DNA from: Candidatus Saccharimonadota bacterium
GTDB lineage: Bacteria; Patescibacteriota; Gracilibacteria; BD1-5; UBA2023
Assembly (NCBI GenBank): GCA_046350815.1
Contig: JAXLZO010000001.1
Coordinates: 870,001 to 902,000 of the forward strand
Length of the DNA stretch: 32,000 nt
Reading direction: 5' to 3'
The notes beneath the pieces were generated by a model. The model was not told where the DNA came from. It ran no database searches and saw only the letters and a list, made by a program, of their open reading frames with translations. Positions within the stretch are counted from its first letter, which is position 1. The number at the start of each line of letters is the position of its first letter. This document shows positions 11,378 through 32,000 of this stretch, one piece after another. A program made the position numbers and the translations under genes.

Positions 11378-11489
11378 TAAAAGGTTGTCTGTCATTCCCG
11401 CTGAGGCGGGTGACCACAGGAAATGCAGCGAATCGCACTGATGTGATGAGTCGTGAATCTATTCTTTCTATAGTCACTTATAAAAATTT

Positions 11490-11533
11490 TTGACTTTTCT
11501 CTCTAAAAAGTATATACTTTGTATATACTTTTT
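11490..11533 (+). promoter_or_regulatory. sigma70-type promoter overlapped by a perfect 13-bp inverted-repeat operator upstream of mazE
   Basis: TTGACT (11490-11495), 17-nt spacer, TATACT (11513-11518). Palindrome aaaaagtatatac-ttt-gtatatacttttt spans 11505-11533. Confidence 0.65.
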
Positions 11534-11544
11534 ATTTCAATGAC

Positions 11545-11793
11545 ATGACTACTATTGTTTCAAAATGGGGTAATAGTCTCGCCATACGCATCCCATCTGA
11601 TATTATCCAAAAGAGTAATCTTTGCATCGGTGATAAGCTCGATATGACTGTCTCACAGCATGGAAAAATTATTCTTGCTGCTCAACCAAAAGATATAAAT
11701 TTTTGAGAGCTGTATGAACAAATCACACCACAAAATCGATATAATGAAGAATTGATTCACAGTGAAGTTGGTAATGAAAAAGTTGTATGGTAG
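11545..11793 (+). CDS. mazE: MazE/PemI-type antitoxin (SpoVT/AbrB domain)
   Basis: MTTIVSKWGNSLAIRIPSDIIQKSNLCIGDKLDMTV matches the AbrB-like swapped-hairpin motif (v.kwGNS.avRiP). 82 aa, one TGA, TAG stop at 11791-11793. Overlaps the mazF start. Confidence 0.85.
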
Positions 11794-12140
11794 TGTCGCA
11801 ATATATACCGGATAGGGGTGATATTATTTGGATCGATTTTGATCCCCAAGCAGGACGAGAACAATCATGAAGACGACCAGCATTGGTCTTGTCACACAAA
11901 AAATATAATGAACGAGCAGAGCTCGTTATTCTCTGTCCTATCACCTCAAAAGCCAAATCATACCCTTTTGTTGTTCATCTCCCTGAAGATCTTCTCTCTA
12001 AGCCGAGTTACGTGCTCTCAGATCAGGTAAAAAGTGTAGATTGGATAAGACGAAATGCGACATTTTTAGCAAAAGCCCCAGCATCATCTCTGGAGGTGGT
12101 CACTCTCTTTGCTGTAGGTATTATCAAGGGGATGTGTTAA
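11787..12140 (+). CDS. mazF: MazF/PemK-family endoribonuclease toxin
   Basis: MVVSQYIPDRGDIIWIDFDPQAGREQS-G-RRPALVLSHKKYN...CPITSKAKSYPFVV..SDQVKSVDW aligns by eye with E. coli MazF (PDMGDLIWVDFDPTKGSEQAGHRPAVVLS). TGA 11868-11870 sits on the conserved Gly. Confidence 0.9.
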
Positions 12141-22437: not shown

Positions 22438-22516
22438 GCGGGGGTAACATAAAAGAGTGAGTGTACTAAGGCTTCAACCCTTGGGTGTGCCAGTTCGAAC
22501 CTGGTCCCCCGCTCCA
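22438..22516 (+). tRNA. tRNA-Gly with anticodon UCA (decodes UGA); CCA encoded
   Basis: Hand-folded cloverleaf. Acceptor gcggggg/cccccgc, discriminator T, CCA. D-stem acat/gtgt. Anticodon stem (c)taagg/ccttg(g), loop cttcaac with anticodon tca at 22474-22476. T-arm gccag-ttcgaac-ctggt. G1:C72, C2:G71, G3:C70 and U73 are the bacterial GlyRS identity set and are shared with the neighbouring tRNA-Gly(GCC). Confidence 0.85.
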
Positions 22517-22557
22517 TTTGCTTCTCTAGGTATGATTTTTATGGCATTACAACTGTT

Positions 22558-22634
22558 GCGGGTATAGCTCAATTGGCTAGAGCGTCGCCTTGCCATGGCG
22601 AAGGTTGTGAGTTCGAACCTCATTACCCGCTCCA
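22558..22634 (+). tRNA. tRNA-Gly (anticodon GCC); CCA encoded
   Basis: gcgggta-ta-gctc-aattggcta-gagc-g-tcgcc-ttGCCat-ggcga-aggtt-gtgag-ttcgaac-ctcat-tacccgc-t-cca forms a canonical cloverleaf. Confidence 0.9.
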
Positions 22635-22648
22635 TTTTTTTTCTCTCA

Positions 22649-22987
22649 ATGGCTAATTCTCACGGTCTCTCTTCGCGTCTCGTCAAAAAACAAGCTGCTG
22701 CTCGTAAGCTTTCAAAATGAAAAAAGAAAGCAGCACAAGTCTATATTGGCAACGAAAATGCTCAAAGAAGATCACTTCAGAGTTACAAAAAGAGAACGAG
22801 GTATATGCAGAATAAAGAAGCGTTTCCAAGTAAGAAACTTCCCACTAAAAATATTGATTCTCTTATCGAACTAGGAATCATTGATGAGCGAGGATTTTTC
22901 AAAAAAGGAAAGAAAAAGAACTTTATTACAGGCGGAATGACAGATCGAAATGGTCTTGATTTCTATGGGCTCCCTCGAGCAAAATAG
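22649..22987 (+). CDS. hypothetical highly basic protein (112 aa)
   Basis: ATG 22649; joins with track ORF 22805-22987 through TGA 22718-22720. Lys/Arg-rich. TAG at 22985-22987. Sits between tRNA genes. Confidence 0.45.
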
Positions 22988-22996
22988 TTACTCTAT

Positions 22997-23074
22997 GCAG
23001 TCGTAGCTCAGTTGGATTAGAGCGCCTCCCTGCGAAGGAGGAGGTCATAGGTTCGAGCCCTATCGATTGCACCA
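22997..23074 (+). tRNA. tRNA-Arg (anticodon GCG); CCA encoded
   Basis: gcagtcg-ta-gctc-agttggatta-gagc-g-cctcc-ctGCGaa-ggagg-aggtc-atagg-ttcgagc-cctat-cgattgc-a-cca. Anticodon at 23032-23034, discriminator A73. Confidence 0.85.
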
Positions 23075-24501
23075 TTACATACCTTAAGAGCCTTACTCAA
23101 CTCGAAAACCTCGTTTTTCCTGATGCATAAGGCTTTTTTATTGTCCAAAATGAGTTCGACAGCAAGAATTTTGATTATATCCCTTTTTTTCTCAAAAGAA
23201 GCATTTTTATAATGTTGGACTATATTTATAAGAGGTTCGACAATTTCACTTGCTTCTGTGAGTAAGTCAATATTCACGTCTTGAATGAGCTTCAATGCCT
23301 CATCAATCTCTAAGAGTTCAGCGTGGTTTTCCTCGTTGGACTTTTTGAATTGTTCTGCGGATATTTCTCCATTTGCACGCATATCAAGATAGCCATCCAT
23401 CTTCTTATTGATTGCCTTTTTCTTATTCATGAGGGTCATTCTTTTTCTCTCATTATCTTTGATAATATTCTTCGTTTCTTGGATAGATCCATCGATAATA
23501 ATTTGAGCTATTTCTCTGCTAATCTCAAACTCATCAATACATTGATCGAAATATTCAATGATTTTCTTCTCACTTATTCGCACAGCACCAGCTCATCGCC
23601 CATGGTAATATACTACCTTACTCATTCTTCCAGTTGATTCCGATGCCGAAAGAATATTCCCGTGCATATCTTTAACGAGTCATTTAAATGGGAATTGTTC
23701 TCGTGGTGTTACTGCCTTGAAAACAGTATTTGCCCTATCCCAGAGATTTTTATCAACAATTGCAAAAGCTTTGTTCATAATTACTTCTCATCAGAAATGC
23801 ATGAGTCCATAATATGTCTTTGTGCGAAGTATTTGCTCCACGGATTTTCTCGTAAAATTGTTACTTTTCCATCCATGATCACTCTTGAGAATGTCTTTTG
23901 CTCTCACATGTTCAGCGATCGCATGAGTAGTCCATCACTTATTCACTCGTAGATCAAATATTTCTTGAATCTGTTCTGCTTCGACTGGATCTACTACCCA
24001 AGTATTATTTTCATCTTTTTTGTACCCACGAGGTCATCTGGTAACAAACTGTCCCTTCCTAAATTTTGTAAGCATGCCACGCTTAATATCCTCCGCCAAC
24101 TTCATAACGTAGTGATTCGCAAAAGAGAGGATCACAGCCATCATCATCGTGCTCTCTTGCTTTCCAAAGACTCCATCAGATACGGTATGCACCTTTTGGA
24201 TTTGTCCTCTCTGAACAATCGTCTGGAGCTTTGCCCCGTCGATCGGATTTCGAGAGAGACGATCTAATTTCCAAGCGACAATACCATCAGCCTCTCACTT
24301 TTTACAGCGATCAATCATCGCTTGAAACTTTGGGCGTGTTTCCTCAATCTTTGCAGAGAGGACTTCTTCAAATATCTCAATGACCTCAAATCATTCTCTC
24401 GTACAAAGAGACTCACACTCAAGTCTCTGAGACTCCAGAGAGAGTTGCTGCTTGTCCTCACGATCAGTGGACTTGCGTAGGTAGATAAAAACTCGAAACA
24501 T
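23017..24501 (-). CDS. large serine recombinase (integrase)
   Basis: 494 aa from ATG 24501. N-terminal resolvase catalytic domain MFRVFIYLRKSTDREDKQQLSLESQ...GIVAWKLDRLSRN, then a recombinase domain and C-terminal coiled coil (track ORF 23017-23583). About 8 in-frame TGA. The last 58 nt overlap tRNA-Arg antisense. Confidence 0.9.
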
Positions 24502-24580
24502 ACAAAACAATTTATATACTAAAAAGATAGCTCTCTTGTCCTAATAAGCAACAAGAAAAGGGGAGTCAACCCCCTCATTC

Positions 24581-24958
24581 TTATATCCTATCGAGATCAC
24601 GAAAGTCATCGATTCACCGAGTATCTCATAGAGCATCTCATGATTTCTTTTGGAGAACTGAGAAGTTTGTGGTGTGAATCTCGGCTACTTTCTTCCTGAC
24701 ATCATTCTCCTGAAACTCTGAGTACTGAAGACGACCGGTTATATAGAGAGTGTCTCACTTTGAGACCATATCGCTCATCTTCATAGCAAGAGTACCCCAG
24801 GCGACACATGAATGATACTCTGGGATAGTTTGTCCGCTTCGATCGCTGCGATTCGTAGCAATCTGAAAGTTCAGAAACGTATCACCATTTTTAAGCTCTT
24901 TCCGTGTAGGGTGTGAGCAAATATTTCCGAGAATGTTGATTTGATTGATTGAGTGCAT
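24581..24958 (-). CDS. ssb: single-stranded DNA-binding protein
   Basis: MHSINQINILGNICSHPTRKELKNGDTFLNFQIATNR....HSCVAWGTLAMKMSDMVSK-G-DTLYITGRLQYSEFQ is the OB-fold SSB pattern, with an acidic C-terminal tail ..GIDDFRDLDRY. ATG at 24958, TAA at 24581-24583. Confidence 0.85.
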
Positions 24959-24987
24959 AGGTTTGACTCTTAAGAGACTGTATAAAG

Positions 24988-25353
24988 TTATATTTTTTCC
25001 ATTTCGTTTACTATCCTGATAGCATCTTCGTATCAGTGTGCAAAAAAAGCACCGACATTGTTGATGCTTGAGAGTGCTTGTATCCACTCTTCTTGAGTTG
25101 GATCAATGTGTGAGTCGTTGAGTCATCCTTTCGGTCATCTCTCTTTTTTCATCTCGAGAAAGAGAAGAGATCATCTCTTGAGAATAATCATGAAGTCAGG
25201 AACTCATGGGGAGACTCCCATGCGTTTTTTCTTCGCTCCGACGATCATGGCGACCTTTGGAGGGAGTCATGACTCATTGGCTATATGTGTGAATATATAC
25301 CTATGCAAGACGAGCCATCGTGCGAAGGCTTCTGAGTGTTGTGTTTCGGTCAT
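24988..25353 (-). CDS. VRR-NUC domain nuclease
   Basis: 121 aa. ...KRMGVSP-G-VPDFMIILKR-G-SLLFLEMKKER-G-..QEEWIQAL.. matches the PD-(D/E)xK VRR-NUC motif (G.PD...lE.K...Q..w). 6 in-frame TGA. Verified codon by codon. TAA at 24988-24990. Confidence 0.8.
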
Positions 25354-25371
25354 TGGTGGAATTTTAACAAA

Positions 25372-25398
25372 AGAAAAACCATGATCCTCCAATCATGG
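25372..25398 (-). terminator. candidate terminator
   Basis: The minus strand reads ccatgat-tggagg-atcatgg followed by tttttc. Confidence 0.45.
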
Positions 25399-25648
25399 TA
25401 TATAGTTTTTAAGAAGAGATGTATTTTACATCTCTTGCTCTTGCCATCCTTTTCTCTGGCTTGCTTTCTGTTCAATAAAGCTATAAGTGAGACCAGATGT
25501 GTCTAAGTATATATAGTCCTCATCTTCTGATAAGATCCAAAGATCATATACATTGTAGCCCTGACGATTTTTAAAGAGTTGGTACTCCTCCATCAGTGCT
25601 TCAAATATTTGCTCCGCTGAGACACGCTCTCCCAATATATTGATATAA

Positions 25649-25655
25649 TTACTAA
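25649..25655. repeat. target-site duplication TTACTAA (left)
   Basis: An identical 7-mer lies directly outside each IS terminus. Confidence 0.75.
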
Positions 25656-26408
25656 GGGTCTAAACCAGTTACGGGTTATATTGACGAAGTAACTTTAGCA
25701 CTTCCTTATAAATATCTTTTCATTGAATACGACAATTATATCTGAATTCAGATTCTTTCAAAAAATAGTAGAAGTAGACTTTCTTGATTCCATTGAATTG
25801 AGAGAGTCTTCTTTTGGTATAACTCCAAAATGACTCTATTCAATTAATGTGTTGAGTTCATCTTGCAAATTCATTTGCTCCGTGATGAACACGGTAGTGT
25901 TTCTCATATCCAATATCTACAAGCCCATCATAAGCTCACCATCCATCACTGTTAATCTCAGACTCTTCTATACGAAGTTTTCATCGAATGATTGGCACGA
26001 GAGTCCTTGCTTTTACATCAGGAACTATCTCAGTATATACTTTTCAGTTTCTTTTGAGTAAACCAAAGACTATTGTCTTCATACCAGCTCACCTTCCTCT
26101 CTTTCATCGGACTCTTGTTGGTCAGAAGTAACTCTCATCTATCTCAACATTTCCAGTCCATATTTCATTCTTTTCTCTCTCACAGAGAAAGGCTATCGCC
26201 TTTCTGATATATCTATACCAATCCTGTGTTGTTTTTGGATTGAGACCTGTTAATACCGCTGTTTTATCTGAAGTAAAATCCAGAGAAAAATATTTCACAA
26301 TTTCTCTTATTTTTGCATCTCAAATTCGTGATTTTTTCCTATAGGTAGTTTTACTGATCATAGAGCCAAGTTTATGGGATAATTTATCCTGTCAACTGGT
26401 TTAGACCC
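25656..26408 (-). mobile_element. IS1595-family (IS1016-like) insertion sequence, 753 bp
   Basis: Terminal inverted repeats gggtctaaaccagtt (25656-25670) and aactggtttagaccc (26394-26408), a single DDE transposase ORF, and a 7-bp TSD. Size, GGG termini and TSD length fit the IS1016 group as described in ISfinder. Confidence 0.8.
25669..26361 (-). CDS. IS1595-family DDE transposase (230 aa)
   Basis: ...NVEIDESYF-G-PTRVR-G-KRGR-G-AGMKTIVFGLLKRN-G-KVYTEIV..INSDGW-G-AYDGL...HINGIESFWSYTKRRL..FYYFLKESEFRYN matches the DDE_Tnp_IS1595 pattern. 11 in-frame TGA. The stop TAA 25669-25671 lies inside the left IR. Confidence 0.85.
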
Positions 26409-26415
26409 TTACTAA
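26409..26415. repeat. target-site duplication TTACTAA (right)
   Basis: See the left copy at 25649-25655. Confidence 0.75.
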
Positions 26416-26650
26416 AACCAGCATTAAATTCTTCTTTGCTCATTACTTCAAAGATATATTTGGTAATTTCATCACAATCACATTGCATCTCTTTAGGTAC
26501 AAAATACAGTTTAACTAATTCTTGAGAATAATGCACCATAACAGGGTATGTGTCCATGATTTCCTCCTTCTTTGTGTATCAATCTGAACATGTGTATTTT
26601 ACATAAAATATGCATCATTTCAATACTTCAAAATATCATTAGATGCTGAA

Positions 26651-26797
26651 TTATTTCAGTAAATGCTTCACTCGCTCTGCTGTAGGCTTTGCGAGGTGTT
26701 GTCTGAGGAGTTCTCTCCTCTGTTTTTCTCGTCTCTCTTCGATGAATTTGAGATGAGCGATATGTTCTGGAGTGTGATGAGGTTTATCGTTTCGCAT
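26651..26797 (-). CDS. hypothetical small charged protein (48 aa)
   Basis: MRNDKPHHTPEHIAHLKFIEERREKQRRELLRQHLAKPTAERVKHLLK has a helical, charged composition. No SD. A competing plus-strand ORF looks non-protein-like. Confidence 0.3.
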   Translation of the reverse strand: MRNDKPHHTPEHIAHLKFIEERREKQRRELLRQHLAKPTAERVKHLLK

Positions 26798-26860
26798 AGA
26801 GAAAATATAAAAAAGAAAAATCCCCGATTCGTGAAAGAATGGGGAAGAAGAGAAAATGTA

Positions 26861-27250
26861 CTATCAGTGAGATATTTTGTCCATATAGGACTGCGCACAA
26901 GCTAGTTGTGGACTGAGATTCGCGCTTGTAATATCCTCAAACTGATCATACTTTGTGCGTATACGCAACAAGAATATCGAAACATTACCGACAGTTCCAG
27001 TAGCAAATACGGATATTACCGGATAGTCGCAATTGAGACTATCGAATATTCTCATACCAAGTTCACTTAAAAGCTTATTGTCTTGATTCATGTAACATAT
27101 ATGATAAGAATTTCTGGATGTAAAATATTCATTAAGAATTTTTTTCACATCATGAGATGAACCTATCATGTCTTCATAAATTTTCTGCAAAGCTTTGTGC
27201 GCTTTCGGAAGTATGTCATGTGTATACAATTCTTCTGCATTCATGTTCAT
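26861..27250 (-). CDS. hypothetical protein (about 127-129 aa)
   Basis: Intact ORF. AAGGAGGA precedes tandem ATGs (27250 and 27244). Ends ...ISH-TGA-TAG at 26861-26866. No family recognised. Confidence 0.55.
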
Positions 27251-27299
27251 TCCTCCTTATAGTTAGAACATGTTTTTCATGCTATGCGTTAATTATCAT

Positions 27300-27335
27300 T
27301 TGTCAATATAACCCGTAAATGTTTTAGATCCTAGT
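27300..27335. repeat. solo, degenerate copy of the IS left end (inverted orientation)
   Basis: tgtcaatataacccgtaaatgttttagatcctagt compared with the reverse complement of 25651-25686, cgtcaatataacccgtaactggtttagacccttagt. Confidence 0.7.
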
Positions 27336-27451
27336 CTAATACATTCTAGCATACGGTGCACAATAAAGTAAATGCTTGATCTGAAACTCTGTGAGTGATG
27401 GATCGTTAGTCACAATTTCACGAAACTTCTCTGCATACAAATGGATCCATG

Positions 27452-27604
27452 TTATTGGGTCCATTTCTGTATCTTCCAAGATGAATTTCACTTGGAGCTT
27501 CGCAATTTGCGTAAGTGTTCGAGAGCGTGGTTGGAGATATTCAGTTGGTGGAGGAAGACCGATGTTTCATACATCGTTACATCAATCATCTTCTTCATCA
27601 TCAT
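27452..27604 (-). CDS. hypothetical small protein (about 50 aa)
   Basis: AAGGAGGAG lies directly upstream of ATGATGATG (27596-27604). One internal TGA. TAA at 27452-27454. Confidence 0.35.
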
Positions 27605-27939
27605 CTCCTCCTTGGTCGAGTTCGAGGGACATGCAGATTGTGAATTAAGAGTTAGCTACTTGATGACCCAAACATCTTCCATCAGATCATATGTTGTCAC
27701 AACTTCCATTTGGGATAGCTGTATATCACTTTGTTTCCAAATTTGTGCATTCAATAAGAAAGTCTTCATATGAGCATCAAAACATTTCCCAGCATTGAAG
27801 TTTCATTTTCATTTTATTTTTCATGCTTTTAAAATGTTCTCTCATACCATCAATGGAAGCAACAATATGCACTGTTTGTCTCATAAAAAAAGAATAATAA
27901 AAACCGAGCAATCGACTCGGTAGCAGTGTTTGAACACAG

Positions 27940-27963
27940 AAAAACTCCTTTTTTAGGAGTTTT
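27940..27963 (-). terminator. Rho-independent terminator of the CDF gene
   Basis: The minus strand reads aaaactcct-aaaaa-aggagttttt, 18 nt after the stop at 27982. Confidence 0.65.
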
Positions 27964-27981
27964 ATGTATTTAATATTTGAT

Positions 27982-28911
27982 CTAACAAATATGATTCCCA
28001 CACTCACCATATTCCGTCTCAAGCGTAGTATGATGAATATTTTCATCTTCAAGAATATGTCGTATTTGAGTTTTTATGGTTTGTTCATCCTCTCATTTTC
28101 CTAGGGTGATATGTGCAGTAAAAGCATTTTTTGTTGTTGAGAGAGACCATATATGAATATGATGGATATCTTGTACTCCTTCAATCTTAAGAAGCTTGAT
28201 TCTTATATCTTCTGTATCTATCCCATGAGGTACTCCATCAAAATTCATACGAATACTTTGTTTGAGAAGATTCATTACACTTACAAGCATCACTATGGAT
28301 ACAACGATTGATATGATTGGATCGATGACGGTGTATCCTGTGAAATAGATGAGAGCGCCAGCAAAAACAACGCCCAAAGAAACAAGAGCATCCATGAGAA
28401 GGTGCATGTATGCAGACTTGATATTTATATCTTCTTTTCCAGCCTTCATGAGAATTAGACCAGAGAAGCCATTCACCAATATTCCTATGCCTGCAACTAT
28501 CATCATGGTAGTACCAACAGTCTCTACTGGTTGCATCATTCTTCCTATTGCTTCAAATACAAGATAAATTGCCGTGATAATTATGAGAATGGAGTTTATA
28601 AGAGCTGAGAAAATACTCGCTCTTTTATATCCATAGGTAAATCGCTCTGTACTTTTTCTTTGTGAGAGCCACAGTGCGAATCATGAAAGTAAGAGGTTAA
28701 GAATATCCATCACATTGTGACTCGCATCCGATAGCAGTGCAAGTGAGTGAATTTTCACACCAAAGAATGCTTCGACGATTACAAAAGCTATATTGAGAGT
28801 TATTGCGAGTAAGAAGGCAGAAGAAAGATTAGATACTCCGTGAGAATGATCATGATTTTCATGAATATCTCAATATTCGTGATGATGGCTTGTATGATGT
28901 TGATGAGTCAT
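27982..28911 (-). CDS. cation diffusion facilitator (CzcD/ZitB-like divalent metal exporter)
   Basis: 309 aa. His-rich N-terminus MTHQHHTSHHHEY-G-DIHENHDHSH, TM2 motif LLSDASHN, TM5 HLLMDAL, and a C-terminal cytoplasmic domain ..IHHIHIWSLS..AHITL... Reads through TGA 28093 to TAG 27982-27984. Confidence 0.85.
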
Positions 28912-28969
28912 GCGTGCTATAGGGAAAATAGTCGTGAATTATATGAGAAATAGCTTGAAGAGCAATGAG

Positions 28970-30010
28970 CTATTTTTCTATTAAAAACAACCTTACTTCC
29001 TCCTCTCTCCTCTTCAGTAATCCCTTCAGCTGTCTCCCTCCAGCCCCATTCTTCCAATACTCAATCTTCGGTTGTCACTTCTTCACCTTTGCCGTGACTC
29101 GAAGGTAGCATCGCTCACAGTTGTACCGGAGTGATGTAAGAGCTGCAATCTTGTTGTCGGAACTTTTCGGATAGTTCTTACGGATTCTTGCGATGAGCTT
29201 GTCTACAATTTCTTGTAGTCTTCGCTCAGCTTCCTGTTTGGTTATTTTCTCGCCTGCATACGATCGAGTTCCGTATCCAATGGAGTATCCGAGGTGATCC
29301 CAGTAGGCTGTGAGCCTGAGTCCTTCGTATTTTCGGATCATTTCGAGCGCGAGTACTCTCGCAGATGATTCGTTCCCATGTATATTCTCTCAAGCATCCT
29401 TCCGTGGGCTTGAAGGAGCTTTTCATGTTTGTTTAGCCACTTGTAGTTTTCGATCTGATCAAGTGATATTTCACGAATCTTTTCCCACACTCGATTGAGT
29501 TGTAGGAGAATATATATGGTTACTACCAGATTGCACAGAAGGCTTATTGAGAATGTCATCATGAGCATATGCTGTCGTGATTAGTGATGGTCTGGGGGGT
29601 GCGGTGGAAACTGCCCCACCGCTAGCATTCTTTTGTGTGTTTGTACATTCGAATGAGACCAAGCGAATGCATCCATCGAGATCCTGAAGTCTTGAGTCTG
29701 CATTCTGAAGTTTGTCTTCATTCGCTTTCTTGTTCTTGAGGTATTCCTGGTAGAGAGCATCTTGTTTCTTTTGAGCTTCGTCCATTTCTTTCAGGATGGA
29801 TGCTTTGTTGTCCTCGAGGTACTTTTGTTCGACTTCGTAGTCGTGTATGAGTTTTTGTTGCATTGCTTTATACGTCTTTGCTTCATCAACCTTTTCAGAG
29901 AGATGAGAGACATAGAATCAGAGAGCAATCACCAAGATTGCGAAGAGGATCGCATCAAGATTGTTTCTTACTATACCCGAGAGCGTAGATGTGATTTTTG
30001 GAAAATTCAT
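28970..30010 (-). CDS. membrane-anchored GH24 (phage-type) lysozyme: N-terminal TM anchor, coiled coil, Ser/Thr/Pro-rich linker, lysozyme domain
   Basis: With TGA as sense, one frame runs from ATG 30010 (MNFPKITSTLSGIVRNNLDAILFAILVIAL-G-FYVSHL) through track ORFs 29471-29863 and 29075-29341 to TAG 28970-28972. The GH24 motifs ..ARVLALEMIRKYEGLRLTAYWDHLGYSIGYG.. and the post-TGA tail ..EYWKNGAGGRQLKGLLKRREEE lie on both sides of TGA codons. Start is uncertain (30010, 29863, or an internal GTG). Confidence 0.7.
29338..29568 (-). CDS. embedded out-of-frame ORF encoding a single-TM protein (holin-like candidate)
   Basis: MLMMTFSISLLCNLVVTIYILLQLNRVWEKIREI... has one N-terminal TM helix plus a charged tail. 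It lies wholly inside the linker-coding part of the lysozyme ORF. Its TGA (29338-29340) overlaps ATG 29341 as ATGA. Under table 25 it would run on to TAA 29242-29244. Confidence 0.3.
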   Translation of the reverse strand: MLMMTFSISLLCNLVVTIYILLQLNRVWEKIREISLDQIENYKWLNKHEKLLQAHGRMLERIYMGTNHLREYSRSK

Positions 30011-30027
30011 AGAGGAATTTTTGGAAT

Positions 30028-30053
30028 AAAAAAAGCCCTACGTGGTGTAGGGC
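30028..30053 (-). terminator. Rho-independent terminator
   Basis: The minus strand reads gcccta-caccacg-tagggc followed by ttttttt. Confidence 0.7.
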
Positions 30054-30076
30054 AAAGGGTGCTAGCAAGACGAGTT

Positions 30077-30445
30077 TTAGTGAATAGTCACGCCGGAACC
30101 AAGGGGGAATTCAATGGACTCCTCCGAAAAGTTCGGTTGCAATCCAGTTTTCACACAGATTGCTGTCATCACCGTTTCTTCATTTGGACGAAAAATCGGA
30201 ATGAGTGCGACGATACCGTCCAGATCTTGCGTACACAACGATGCAGCTGCCGCGAATACCGCAGCAATGCGATAGTGCGTCTTTGAACGCTTTGCATCCA
30301 GAGATGCTTGAAGCAGGTAGTCCCGTGCACGATCATTGAGATTCCAGGAACGAGCCATGGAATTCACAATCGAACGAACGAGATCTTCACTGCGTTCTTC
30401 CTGGGTTATGCACTCAAGAAGTTGCTCCAGTATGGATTGAGACAT
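30077..30445 (-). CDS. hypothetical protein (122 aa), compositional outlier
   Basis: Intact ORF with ATG 30445 preceded by AGAGGAG and a TAA stop. No TGA. Visibly more GC-rich than its surroundings (about 48% in a hand-counted 100-nt sample). Confidence 0.6.
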   Translation of the reverse strand: MSQSILEQLLECITQEERSEDLVRSIVNSMARSWNLNDRARDYLLQASLDAKRSKTHYRIAAVFAAAASLCTQDLDGIVALIPIFRPNEETVMTAICVKTGLQPNFSEESIEFPLGSGVTIH

Positions 30446-30521
30446 GATTTACTCCTCTTTATTCGTGTCTGTTTCTATATTTTATGTATATTTATATACT
30501 AGTCAATATAATTATATGCTA

Positions 30522-30692
30522 CTATCATGTTTTCTCCTTTCTCTTCTGCCAATCCTTGAATCCGTTTTTGAGACTCTCTGGAGAGTGATATGGGACTCTC
30601 ATATTTTGACGAATTCCTTCGGGAGTGTGGATTACCTGCCCAATATCGATGAGATATTGCATGTAGCTATCCTTGGTTGGATCTGCAATCAT
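30522..30692 (-). CDS. hypothetical small protein (56 aa)
   Basis: ATG 30692; MIADPTKDSYMQYLIDIGQVIHTPEGIRQNMRVPYHSPESLKNGFKDWQKRKEKT; ends TGA-TAG at 30522-30527. Confidence 0.4.
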
Positions 30693-30730
30693 AGAGCTAG
30701 ATTGTTATCACCTTGAAGGCGAGAAATAAA

Positions 30731-30760
30731 AGAAAAATGCCCATCATAAGTAGGCATTTG
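30731..30760 (-). terminator. candidate terminator after the DnaC-like gene
   Basis: The minus strand reads aaatgcc-tacttatgatg-ggcattt followed by ttcttttatttc. Confidence 0.5.
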
Positions 30761-30793
30761 TCGAGTTCGTGAGCGTGGGATGTTGGGATTCGT

Positions 30794-31315
30794 TTACGCA
30801 TGTTTTTGTGTGCTGTAAGTTACGATCTCGGTGCTCGAACGTCGTCGATCTTCTCATCGCATCACAATGACGGTAGCATTATGGAGCACACGAGATACGA
30901 TGCGTTCATTGAGTTTTTCTTTGAGTTCTTTTTCGGTGAGATTGGTGGTGAATATGGTCGGGAGTTTCTTGATCGATCGCTCATCGAGAATATAGGTAAG
31001 ATCTCGGATATATGCATCAGTGACATCGGAAACTCAGATGTCATCGTAGAGAACGAGTGATGAGCGAATGAGCATCTCGAGTGGATACATCTGGATAGAA
31101 CATTGCCATTCATCGGGTTTTCGATGATTCATGAGTCCTGAGGCAATGTATTTTTTGAATTTTGCATCACTGATTTCATACTTGATACTCTCACTGTTGT
31201 ATTTCTCCATGAGCTTCTTGGCAATGTATGTCTTGCCAACCCCTACCGGTCAACAGATCACAAGATTCTTCGAGAAGTCGAAACTCTCAAAAAAATCAGA
31301 AGTAATTTCAGTCAT
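30794..31315 (-). CDS. DnaC/IstB-like AAA+ helicase-loader ATPase
   Basis: 173 aa. Walker A is LVIC-G-PVGVGKTY with the first Gly encoded by TGA 31250-31252. Walker B is LVLYDDI-G-. Sensor region TIFTTN. Frame and ends verified (ATG 31315, TAA 30794-30796). Confidence 0.85.
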
Positions 31316-31323
31316 AGGAAAAA

Positions 31324-31962
31324 TTAGAAGTTGAAATTGTCTCGATCTCTCTCGTGAGATGGTTTTTCTTTTTTTGCGGAACTTTTCTCAAGCCAGTTTT
31401 TTGTAGTAAGAAAAAGAGATTTGTATTTTGTATTTCCCTTATAGTTTTCTATCTGGTCCAAAATCTCATCGATCTGAACTTTTGAAAATCATAGGGTGAT
31501 GAGTTTTTGAAATTCATCCTGCGAAATTGAAAGATGTGCGAATTGCCTATATGTATTAATACTAATATTTATATTAGTATTATTCTTTCTTTCTTTAGTG
31601 GTGGTTATCCGTTGGTTATTTGCTGGTTGCTCGTTTGTTGCTTGGTTGGTTATTTCACCTTGATACAAATCATATTTTTCTATTGTCAGCTTGGTGTAGT
31701 AGCTGGTTGTTTCGCTGGTTATTTCGTTGGTTGATTTTAACCGAGTGAGACACGTGCGAATTTGTTGGTCTGAGAGGCCTGTTTCCTTTGATAATTTGTC
31801 TCGAGAGGTGATAAATTCTCAGCGTTTTATCATTTTTCCTTTCCATTTTTTATCCGCATAATTTGCCTTGAGGAGGATATGGAGAAAGAGTCGCATAGTG
31901 TTAATATCGTCATACCACTCCCACTCAAGCATTTTTCGATGGAGTTTGATATAACCTTCCAT
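31324..31962 (-). CDS. phage replication initiator / DnaD-like replisome organiser
   Basis: 212 aa. MEGYIKLHRKMLEWEWYDDINTMRLFLHILLKANYADKKWKGKMIKR-G-EFITSRDKLSKETGLSDQQIRTCLTRLKSTNEIT is a winged-helix N-domain typical of phage replication proteins. The C-terminal ..SQDEFQKLITL-G-FSKVQIDEILDQIENYKGNTKYKSLFLTTKNWLEK is a DnaD-like motif. TAA at 31324-31326. Confidence 0.8.
31558..31581. repeat. perfect AT-rich palindrome inside the initiator gene
   Basis: aatactaatat-tt-atattagtatt. Confidence 0.85.
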
Positions 31963-32000
31963 ATGCTAAGTATTAGAAATTGGGCGTATCTCGTAACTGG

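Follow-up and report, generated by a model that had tools for sequence, protein, structure and literature searches.

A serine recombinase gene that ends inside a tRNA gene

The window analysed here is a stretch of 32,000 nucleotides (contig JAXLZO010000001.1, positions 870,001 to 902,000) in which a host tRNA-Arg gene meets a block of genes that we read as an integrated mobile element. ARAGORN located the tRNA-Arg, with anticodon GCG, at 22997–23074 on the plus strand; the gene is intact and its CCA end is encoded. Facing it on the minus strand is the gene of a large serine recombinase (LSR), the putative integrase of the element, whose open reading frame (ORF) in translation table 25 encodes 494 aa and runs from an ATG at 24501 to a TAA stop at 23017–23019. 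The LSR gene is the terminal gene of the element and overlaps the tRNA gene by 58 nt (23017–23074), integrase codons 476–494 (NGAIDRARTYDLLLRREAL) being the antisense of tRNA-Arg positions about 21–78. The original prediction had placed the integrase stop inside the tRNA-Arg, with the last 19 codons as tRNA antisense, and the coordinates given by ARAGORN and the table-25 ORF match it exactly.

On the element side of the overlap, the last ~11 conserved integrase codons (…EVFELSKALKVC; 23075–23110, minus strand) carry the conserved C-terminal motif of the enzyme and form the putative P arm of the attachment site. In all members of the clade this motif stops 9–11 codons ahead of the tRNA end. On the host side, the T-arm and 3' acceptor strand of the tRNA (23045–23074, plus strand) make up the predicted B' half-site of the junction, with a T-loop box (antisense GAAC) at +20 from the antisense CCA. 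The predicted crossover region, GCACCA followed by TTAC, lies at 23069–23078 and spans the tRNA 3' terminus; its position is derived from the three locus comparisons described below.

The usual bacterial tRNA-Arg that reads CGN codons is of the ACG (inosine) type. The tRNA-Arg of the window serves these codons with anticodon GCG, and the same anticodon was seen at L069, L072, L093 and L112 (loci and contigs compared with the window are cited by L numbers).

The overlap is a trait of the integrase family

The window LSR has 85 detectable homologues, many of which finish in antisense-tRNA peptides (…RDSNP, …GIRTHA, …GRDRTHANPGPRPGALPLSYG). In the homologue alignment, the conserved body of the protein stops at …K.L.I…LF..K.L, after which the tails diverge. 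We assembled 95 homologue loci totalling 1.55 Mb (15 from IMG/VR and 80 from GTDB species representatives) and scored an overlap wherever an ORF of at least 1.2 kb, taken as the LSR, entered the 3' end of a convergent tRNA. The overlap was present at 54 of the 95 loci, with a length of 10–334 nt (median 57), while the background density of tRNA genes would produce ~0.5 such loci by chance. This excess rules out an accident, and the overlap is a trait of the family rather than of one locus. Thirteen isotypes are represented among the 54, namely Glu (13 loci), Arg (8), Gln (6), Gly (6), Lys (5), Ser (4), Asn (3), Pro (3) and Trp (2), with Ile, Asp, His and Val at one locus each. The overlap is found in both genetic codes, at 31 standard-code and 23 UGA-recoded loci, and the hosts include Gracilibacteria, Peribacteria, Saccharibacteria, Paceibacterota and Nomurabacteria as well as a few metagenome-assembled genomes from outside the candidate phyla radiation (CPR). 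Several loci, L010 and L057 among them, are cut by the contig end within a tRNA.

At two further loci, L008 and L013, the LSR abuts a tmRNA gene that was missed by ARAGORN and found with Rfam (11414–11877 and 11426–11891, respectively; RF00023, 67–75 bits; both contigs are recoded and of Patescibacteria type). These loci had been considered as free attP forms, which was rejected once the tmRNA genes were located. Relaxed ARAGORN runs on the tRNA-less loci gave noisy calls and were not used.

Some other loci of the set are of interest in themselves. Five recoded loci (L028, L040, L078, L035 and L070), in which the LSR is accompanied by a relaxase and a coupling protein, come from contigs assigned by binning to Sulfurimonas/Campylobacterales or Neptuniibacter, or from a scaffold with high coverage (cov2757) in the assembly of a Motiliproteus isolate. 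Their coding density is 0.80–0.87 with table 25 and 0.58–0.77 with table 11, and either mis-binned DNA of epibionts or recoded mobile elements may be the explanation. At L012 (11380–11470), the 3' end of the LSR is followed by TGGTACTCC and then directly by GACGATGGGAGC, a tRNA-Glu reduced to its final 9 nt and its initial 12 nt, with ~55 internal nt missing; a deletion or an error of assembly may have produced this arrangement.

The DNA next to the tRNA-Arg differs among relatives

To the left of the junction, the window carries a host flank in conserved order on the plus strand (22438–22987), consisting of a tRNA-Gly(UCA), a tRNA-Gly(GCC) at 22558–22634 and a gene for a 112-aa basic protein at 22649–22987. 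The first of these is the tRNA with anticodon UCA in the ARAGORN output, which lists three tRNAs in the window together with tRNA-Gly(GCC) and tRNA-Arg(GCG). The 112-aa protein is 70–96% identical to Gracilibacteria/Altimarinota proteins, as named by their sources, and judged by this identity the host is a Gracilibacteria/Altimarinota bacterium. The protein is lysine-rich, has no Pfam domain and recurs, conserved, on hundreds of Gracilibacteria contigs, probably as a core protein that binds nucleic acids or associates with the ribosome.

Loci L109 and L110 have the same host gene order as the window (SpoU, PPase, TGT, RNase H, PheS, DnaN, NUDIX, a 217-aa ORF, the tRNAs and the 112-aa ORF) at 85–94% DNA identity, and the left-side synteny is kept in L109, L110 and L112. 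L022, L109 and L110 share the tRNA-Arg with 100% identity, but what comes next there is a different element, with a tyrosine recombinase. In L112, a more distant relative, TTAC and a terminator hairpin come after the tRNA-Arg, and then metal-homeostasis genes, with no integrase there. None of the window proteins to the right of the tRNA has a homologue in L109, L110, L112 or L022. A 50-mer of the tRNA-Arg was absent from the scans of genome contigs and viral contigs, and the metagenome scan returned L022 only. With the left side conserved and the right-hand DNA different in all four relatives, the predicted integration at tRNA-Arg is borne out: the related loci lack the block and L112 looks empty. 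By these sequence comparisons the block is mobile and the tRNA-Arg site is a hotspot for two recombinase families. The block has its integrase at the boundary, beside the att junction, and is absent from relatives, as a prophage would be.

The tyrosine-recombinase elements (L022 1–3586, L109 8805–12249 and L110 4116–7560) encode a recombinase of 297–311 aa and a Rep-like protein of ~350–390 aa. Members of this Rep-like family (…HFGLDHLEIFG…DFDNSNYGE…) also adjoin LSRs in small elements of L025, L069, L082 and L101. As the family stands beside both enzymes, one cargo backbone seems to be combined with either recombinase family. The metal-homeostasis genes that follow the tRNA-Arg in L112 encode a P-type ATPase and a CsoR-like repressor, and are not homologous to the metal transporter gene of the window described below.

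A predicted crossover at the tRNA 3' terminus

The integrases of L008 and L009 are 98.5% identical, yet one lies beside a tmRNA and the other beside a tRNA-Lys(UUU). Those of L011 and L013 (84% identical) show the same contrast of tRNA and tmRNA, the tmRNA being in L013. In both pairs the DNA is identical up to …AAATGGTGG (TGGTGG, antisense of CCACCA) and unrelated past that point. Such near-identical integrases beside different RNA genes show that the RNA gene is host DNA and that the enzyme accepts different tRNA-like ends. A second comparison comes from L069 and L025, where one P arm is present in two copies. The tRNA-proximal copy is followed by the tRNA and the other, 8.4 kb (L069) or 6.6 kb (L025) upstream, by a non-tRNA arm. 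The P-O-P' and P-O-B' sequences of these loci agree as far as TGGTAC or TGGTAG, which reaches 6 nt into the tRNA, and differ from there on. Third, the window itself shares CCA and TT with L022 and L109, and CCA and TTAC with the apparently empty L112, before it diverges. Counted from the first base of the antisense CCA, the three comparisons together would confine the crossover to about −4 to +6 (~23069–23078 in the window). Serine integrases use a short core, whereas the cores of tRNA-targeting tyrosine-integrase elements measure 25–76 bp (PMC8092301). The short identity at the predicted crossover is the behaviour to be expected from a serine integrase, unlike that of a tyrosine integrase with a 25–76 bp tRNA copy.

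The geometry of the half-sites was examined at 11 junctions without a tRNA (L006, L028, L035, L040, L070, L075, L078 and L101, and the far sites of L025, L069 and L082), among which L006 contains the closest relative (56% identical) of the window integrase. In the absence of a tRNA, the integrase frame runs on for 11–36 codons (…FGTPE.F.IRTF…). The first bases of the P' DNA (TGGTACTCC…) resemble a tRNA 3' end, and further in there is a T-loop-like box, T(T/C)(A/G)GAAC, at +25/+26 in 9 of the 11 P' arms. Of the 38 B' arms, i.e. the junction tRNAs that encode CCA, 35 have their T-loop box at +20. In the LI integrase, the zinc-ribbon-domain (ZD) motif occupies positions 16–24 of the attP half-site and lies 5 bp nearer the centre in attB (PMC3783163). 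Taking the T-loop box as the ZD motif, the LI model would predict the 5–6 bp offset seen between the P' and B' boxes. This equation has good circumstantial support from the sequence pattern and from analogy with LI.

We therefore consider it likely that the window contains the integrase-proximal P-O-B' (attR-type) junction of a mobile, most likely temperate-phage-derived element, inserted by its LSR at the 3' tip of the tRNA-Arg. The P arm of attP would be formed by the final ~11 conserved codons of the recombinase gene, the last gene of the element. The B' half-site would be the acceptor end and T-arm of the tRNA, with the T-loop box acting as the ZD motif. Strand exchange would occur no more than ~10 bp from the tRNA 3' terminus, around NCCA, so that the whole tRNA body would stay host DNA and functional. 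At the unrecombined site, the int frame would enter a P' arm that looks like a tRNA end and has its T-loop-like box 5–6 bp further out; in the integrated state it would read the tRNA antisense to the first stop, which adds 19 junk residues. The original prediction had offered two explanations of the overlap. The first, an attachment site within the integrase 3' end through which the element supplies the tRNA 3' portion, stands for the attachment site and falls for the supply, since at most the last bases (~NCCA) would be derived from the element. The second, an ORF extended by the integration junction, agrees with the data, as the junction-made tail replaces the different tail seen at tRNA-less junctions.

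The integrase protein

Pfam detected a Resolvase domain (PF00239, 8.6e-24, residues 4–151) and a Recombinase domain (PF07508, 1.7e-10, residues 172–260) in the LSR. The catalytic-domain residues Y7, R9, S11, R81, R84 and N85 are invariant in the homologue alignment A2. An AlphaFold2 (AF2) model was built from a 44-sequence alignment and has a mean predicted local distance difference test (pLDDT) score of 85, with ~90 for the recombinase domain PF07508. The domain order in the model is catalytic domain, helix E, recombinase domain, beta ribbon, a coiled coil of ~100 residues and a C-terminal part of the ribbon. The beta ribbon is composed of residues 276–310 and 450–460, and the long antiparallel coiled coil of residues 329–425. 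Foldseek matched the model to the full-length LSR–DNA complexes 9dxd, 9dxh, 9iu2, 9rah and 4kis (E 4e-18 to 7e-9). The matches cover SPbeta-type, Bxb1, PhiC31 and LI integrase complexes, and TP901-1 is among the catalytic-domain matches. By its catalytic domain, recombinase domain and predicted overall fold, the ORF is a bona fide LSR.

Residues 476–494 are the sole long segment with a pLDDT below 50, and this segment coincides with the tRNA-antisense tail. Because the low confidence falls precisely there and the tails are non-homologous among homologues, the 19-residue tail is best read, from the alignment and the model, as a non-conserved by-product made by the junction.

Gene content and recoding of the element

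The minus strand carries every ORF between 23017 and 32000. Upstream of int, a terminator-like hairpin (24556–24576, minus strand; consensus scan only) lies between int and the SSB gene, suggesting that int is transcribed on its own. The SSB gene (24581–24958) encodes 125 aa (Pfam SSB 1.7e-20; phrog_44 1.6e-22) and is followed by a VRR-NUC or Holliday-junction-resolvase-like nuclease gene (24988–25392; Pfam VRR_NUC at cut-off; phrog_824 3.7e-20; phrog_5702 2.5e-8). An insertion sequence (IS) of the IS1595 family sits inside the element at 25634–26430, with 37-nt inverted repeats (IR) and a transposase gene at 25669–26361 (Pfam DDE_Tnp_IS1595 5e-27). The transposase gene contains 10 in-frame UGA codons. 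A solo third copy of the IR at 27299–27332, 870 bp past the IS, resembles a miniature inverted-repeat transposable element or a remnant end. Two ORFs of 129 and 98 aa (26861–27632) match neither Pfam nor PHROGs. They are followed by a CDF cation-efflux transporter gene (27982–28911; Pfam Cation_efflux 1.7e-41 and ZT_dimer), which is either cargo or part of another element. A gene for a membrane-anchored lysozyme or endolysin-like protein (28970–30010; Pfam Phage_lysozyme 5.7e-14; phrog_7 4e-21) has a homologue in contig L103. Between it and a DnaC/IstB-like helicase loader gene (30794–31315; Pfam IstB_IS21 2e-11; phrog_50 1.9e-25) is the third and last ORF of the block without a Pfam or PHROG match. 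Last in the window comes a gene for a DnaD-like replication initiation or helicase-loading protein (31324–31962; phrog_2514 1.8e-25).

Phage replication and lysis genes are thus present, with PHROG matches for the SSB, nuclease, endolysin, DnaC-like and DnaD-like proteins. The predicted identities of SSB, VRR-NUC, lysozyme, DnaC-like and DnaD-like genes are confirmed by Pfam and PHROGs, as is their single-strand arrangement by the ORF map. The claim that all genes are phage-like did not hold, as the block includes the IS, the CDF transporter and the three unmatched ORFs. Beyond the window, Logan contig L004, reached via a TGA-free 122-aa ORF, matches the window with 1 mismatch in 4147 and adds 2.37 kb, which contain a gene for a 170-aa SSB-like protein and small ORFs. 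Samples with this element are SRR26348419–23 and ERZ3756520. The 170-aa family is common on contigs with phage genes, several of them 37–61 kb long. On L103, a member of this family comes immediately after Sipho_tail, holin and CHAP-lysin genes, and the same contig holds homologues of the window lysozyme-like and SSB genes and of a 93-aa ORF of L004. The PHROG matches and the L103 context make a prophage derived from a temperate phage the most likely nature of the element. The element may be a complete prophage.

In-frame TGA codons are found in int (8), SSB (4), VRR-NUC (6), lysozyme (6), DnaC-like (3) and DnaD-like (2) genes. In int, they stand opposite a strongly conserved Gly of standard-code homologues at 4 of 8 positions and opposite Trp at none, whereas the genuine TGG codons pair with Trp or aromatic residues in the alignment. 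The tRNA(UCA) at 22438–22516, which ARAGORN labels SeC, has the Gly identity set G1-C2-G3/U73, as does the adjacent tRNA-Gly(GCC). These three lines of evidence bear out the earlier proposal that UGA is read as Gly in the element genes.

Evidence against the junction model and alternative explanations

Several observations weigh against reading the locus as the att junction of a prophage inserted by this LSR. Pfam and PHROG searches found no structural or packaging gene in 23017–32000 or in the 2.37-kb extension of L004, the original prediction having suggested a look for structural genes past position 32000. Structural genes, those of the siphovirus tail, were seen only on the related contig L103. 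The IS and the CDF transporter show that the block is at least partly eroded or mosaic. No second att boundary (attL, a repeat or a P'-type arm) was found within the 11.3 kb of window and L004, and the boundary repeat or attR anticipated past 32000 was thus missing from the 2.37 kb added by L004. Searches of the window for a second copy of the tRNA 3' 35-mer (up to 3 mismatches), for direct and inverted repeats in the block and for 28-nt similarity at a far end were all negative. A scan for TGGTGC and the T-loop box gave only two weak core-like candidates, at 26538 and 25495, which were not statistically significant. For this element, we recovered neither a free circular attP nor a strictly isogenic empty attB, and an IMG/VR scan for free attP with the P arm and core of L009 returned two known proviruses only. 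At the level of the site, the dyad symmetry of P-O-P' is weak and the scan did not fix the central dinucleotide. The T-loop-like box of the P' arms doubles as code for the conserved IRTF peptide, and its conservation could be driven by the protein. Some P-O-P' junctions are on contigs of 140–225 kb and may be internal array junctions rather than free attP. Finally, the zinc-ribbon domain PF13408 was not detected by Pfam and the four zinc-ligand cysteines are absent from the LSR. The loss of all four is common to the recoded LSR clade A2, in which the ribbon and coiled coil are still predicted confidently.

Among the alternatives, the one that survives best is nonetheless unlikely. It sees the block as a stack or mosaic of elements and remnants, in which a small or eroded element is represented next to the tRNA by a module of int, SSB and the nuclease, and it is compatible with the junction model. 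Arrays do exist at similar sites in relatives. In L082 two different LSRs lie 9.7 kb apart, and the second, an unrelated LSR of 539 aa, has its 3' end against the P' arm of the element nearest the tRNA. L069 and L025 carry int 3'-end fragments of 111 nt and 197 nt at the equivalent position, and in L101 the LSR is followed by another mobilisable element. Small Rep-plus-LSR elements of 6.6–9.7 kb are also found among the relatives, and at L028, L035 and L078 the LSR occurs together with relaxase and coupling-protein genes. The simplest reading of these loci is that newcomers may repeatedly insert beside the tRNA and displace older elements. Stacking of this kind would require attP × (P-O-B') recombination, which, to our knowledge, canonical LSRs do not carry out. 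In the block itself, the IS, the solo IR, the CDF transporter, the second SSB-like gene in L004 and the weak core-like matches would fit a mosaic. However, gene orientation and GC content are uniform over the block, and the lysozyme-like, SSB and 93-aa ORF homologues are together on L103 with a member of the 170-aa family. Moreover, neither an int fragment nor a second LSR was found in the 11 kb by blastn or tblastn, and the candidate cores lack significance.

We regard as improbable the logic known from tyrosine integrases, in which attP would hold the tRNA 3' half as a true copy, with a crossover deep in the tRNA (anticodon or T-loop) and the tRNA 3' portion next to int supplied by the element. 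The 58 nt of perfect tRNA antisense within the integrase ORF could be read in this way, tRNA-targeting elements normally work so, with cores of 25–76 bp (PMC8092301), and the P' arms do open with 6–17 nt identical to the tRNA 3' end. Yet the near-identical integrases and P arms found beside tmRNA and tRNA-Lys part directly after CCA, and the P' arm of L069 and L025 differs from the tRNA from +7 and cannot fold as a tRNA 3' half. The enzyme is, in addition, a serine recombinase, of a family with short cores, and neither a repeat of the tRNA 3' part nor a displaced tRNA fragment is present in the 11 kb. It is very improbable that the tRNA is phage cargo or that the overlap is incidental to a lost UGA stop, with no att junction here: phages often carry tRNAs and UGA reassignment lengthens ORFs, but this tRNA belongs to a host cluster conserved in L109, L110 and L112 with downstream DNA unlike that of the window, the same overlap occurs at the 31 standard-code loci, and 54 observed loci against ~0.5 expected rule out an accident.

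The junction model may extend to the family, although we put this forward only tentatively. An LSR clade that reaches across CPR/Patescibacteria, UGA-recoded lineages included, could have evolved to use the conserved acceptor end and T-arm of any tRNA-like gene as its attB half-site, with the T-loop box as the ZD motif. This would permit relaxed targeting of many tRNAs and of tmRNA without damage to the tRNA, the building of arrays and, because attP lies inside the int gene, a C-terminus that switches with the state of integration.

Comparison with known systems and significance

In the standard picture, tRNA genes serve as targets for tyrosine integrases, and ORFs, with tiny cores, for serine integrases. 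The LSRs of phages (A118/LI, Bxb1, PhiC31, SPbeta SprA and TP901-1) resemble the window LSR in domain order, fold and catalytic Ser/Arg residues. If the junction model is right, a short core and an offset of ~5 bp between the outer motifs of attP-type and attB-type half-sites would also be common to them and its clade. Their targets differ, as known phage LSRs insert into protein-coding genes or intergenic DNA and the window clade at tRNA and tmRNA 3' ends. Unlike them, the clade has its attP inside the 3' end of its own int gene, has relaxed-looking, tRNA-like targets and lacks the zinc-ribbon cysteines. Tyrosine integrases (P4, L5 and Islander-type) share with the clade the target at tRNA/tmRNA 3' ends, the position of int next to the tRNA and a tRNA that is kept functional, and the tyrosine-recombinase elements of L022, L109 and L110 use the very tRNA-Arg that the window LSR uses. 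The likeness in behaviour is limited to the choice of target: they are an unrelated enzyme family and carry a 25–76 bp copy of the tRNA 3' end in place of the ~6–13 bp of identity seen here. With its serine enzyme and no displaced tRNA fragment, the window element also differs from a tRNA-targeting tyrosine-integrase island.

For an integrase whose length and C-terminus are altered by integration, precedents are the intP/attP of the Myxococcus phage Mx8 and the streptococcal rumA integrative and conjugative elements (PMC4701971). The latter have a serine integrase, as in the window, but target rumA and not a tRNA; Mx8 uses a tyrosine integrase. Both have their att site inside the integrase gene, as in the window clade. 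Neither is described as a broad tRNA-directed clade. In the largest survey of LSR att sites, by Durrant et al., the word tRNA is absent, and the literature searched gave only the general rule and the rumA and Mx8 precedents, with nothing on serine integrases that target tRNA or tmRNA ends, which is no proof of novelty.

On the sequence evidence, LSRs, thought to avoid tRNA genes, appear to target them across a wide clade. The overlap accounts for a common oddity of annotation, namely 'recombinase family proteins' with tRNA-antisense C-termini. It also hints, without any wet-lab claim, at integrases for genome engineering whose natural landing site would be near-universal. If the model is true, a serine clade that docks on tRNA and tmRNA 3' ends would blur the division of targets between tyrosine and serine integrases, and would show how an enzyme with a 2-bp crossover can exploit a tRNA gene unbroken, by cutting at its very end and reading the T-arm as a half-site. 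Mobile elements are barely characterised in Gracilibacteria and other members of the CPR, and the model would also provide concrete, testable att sites for them.

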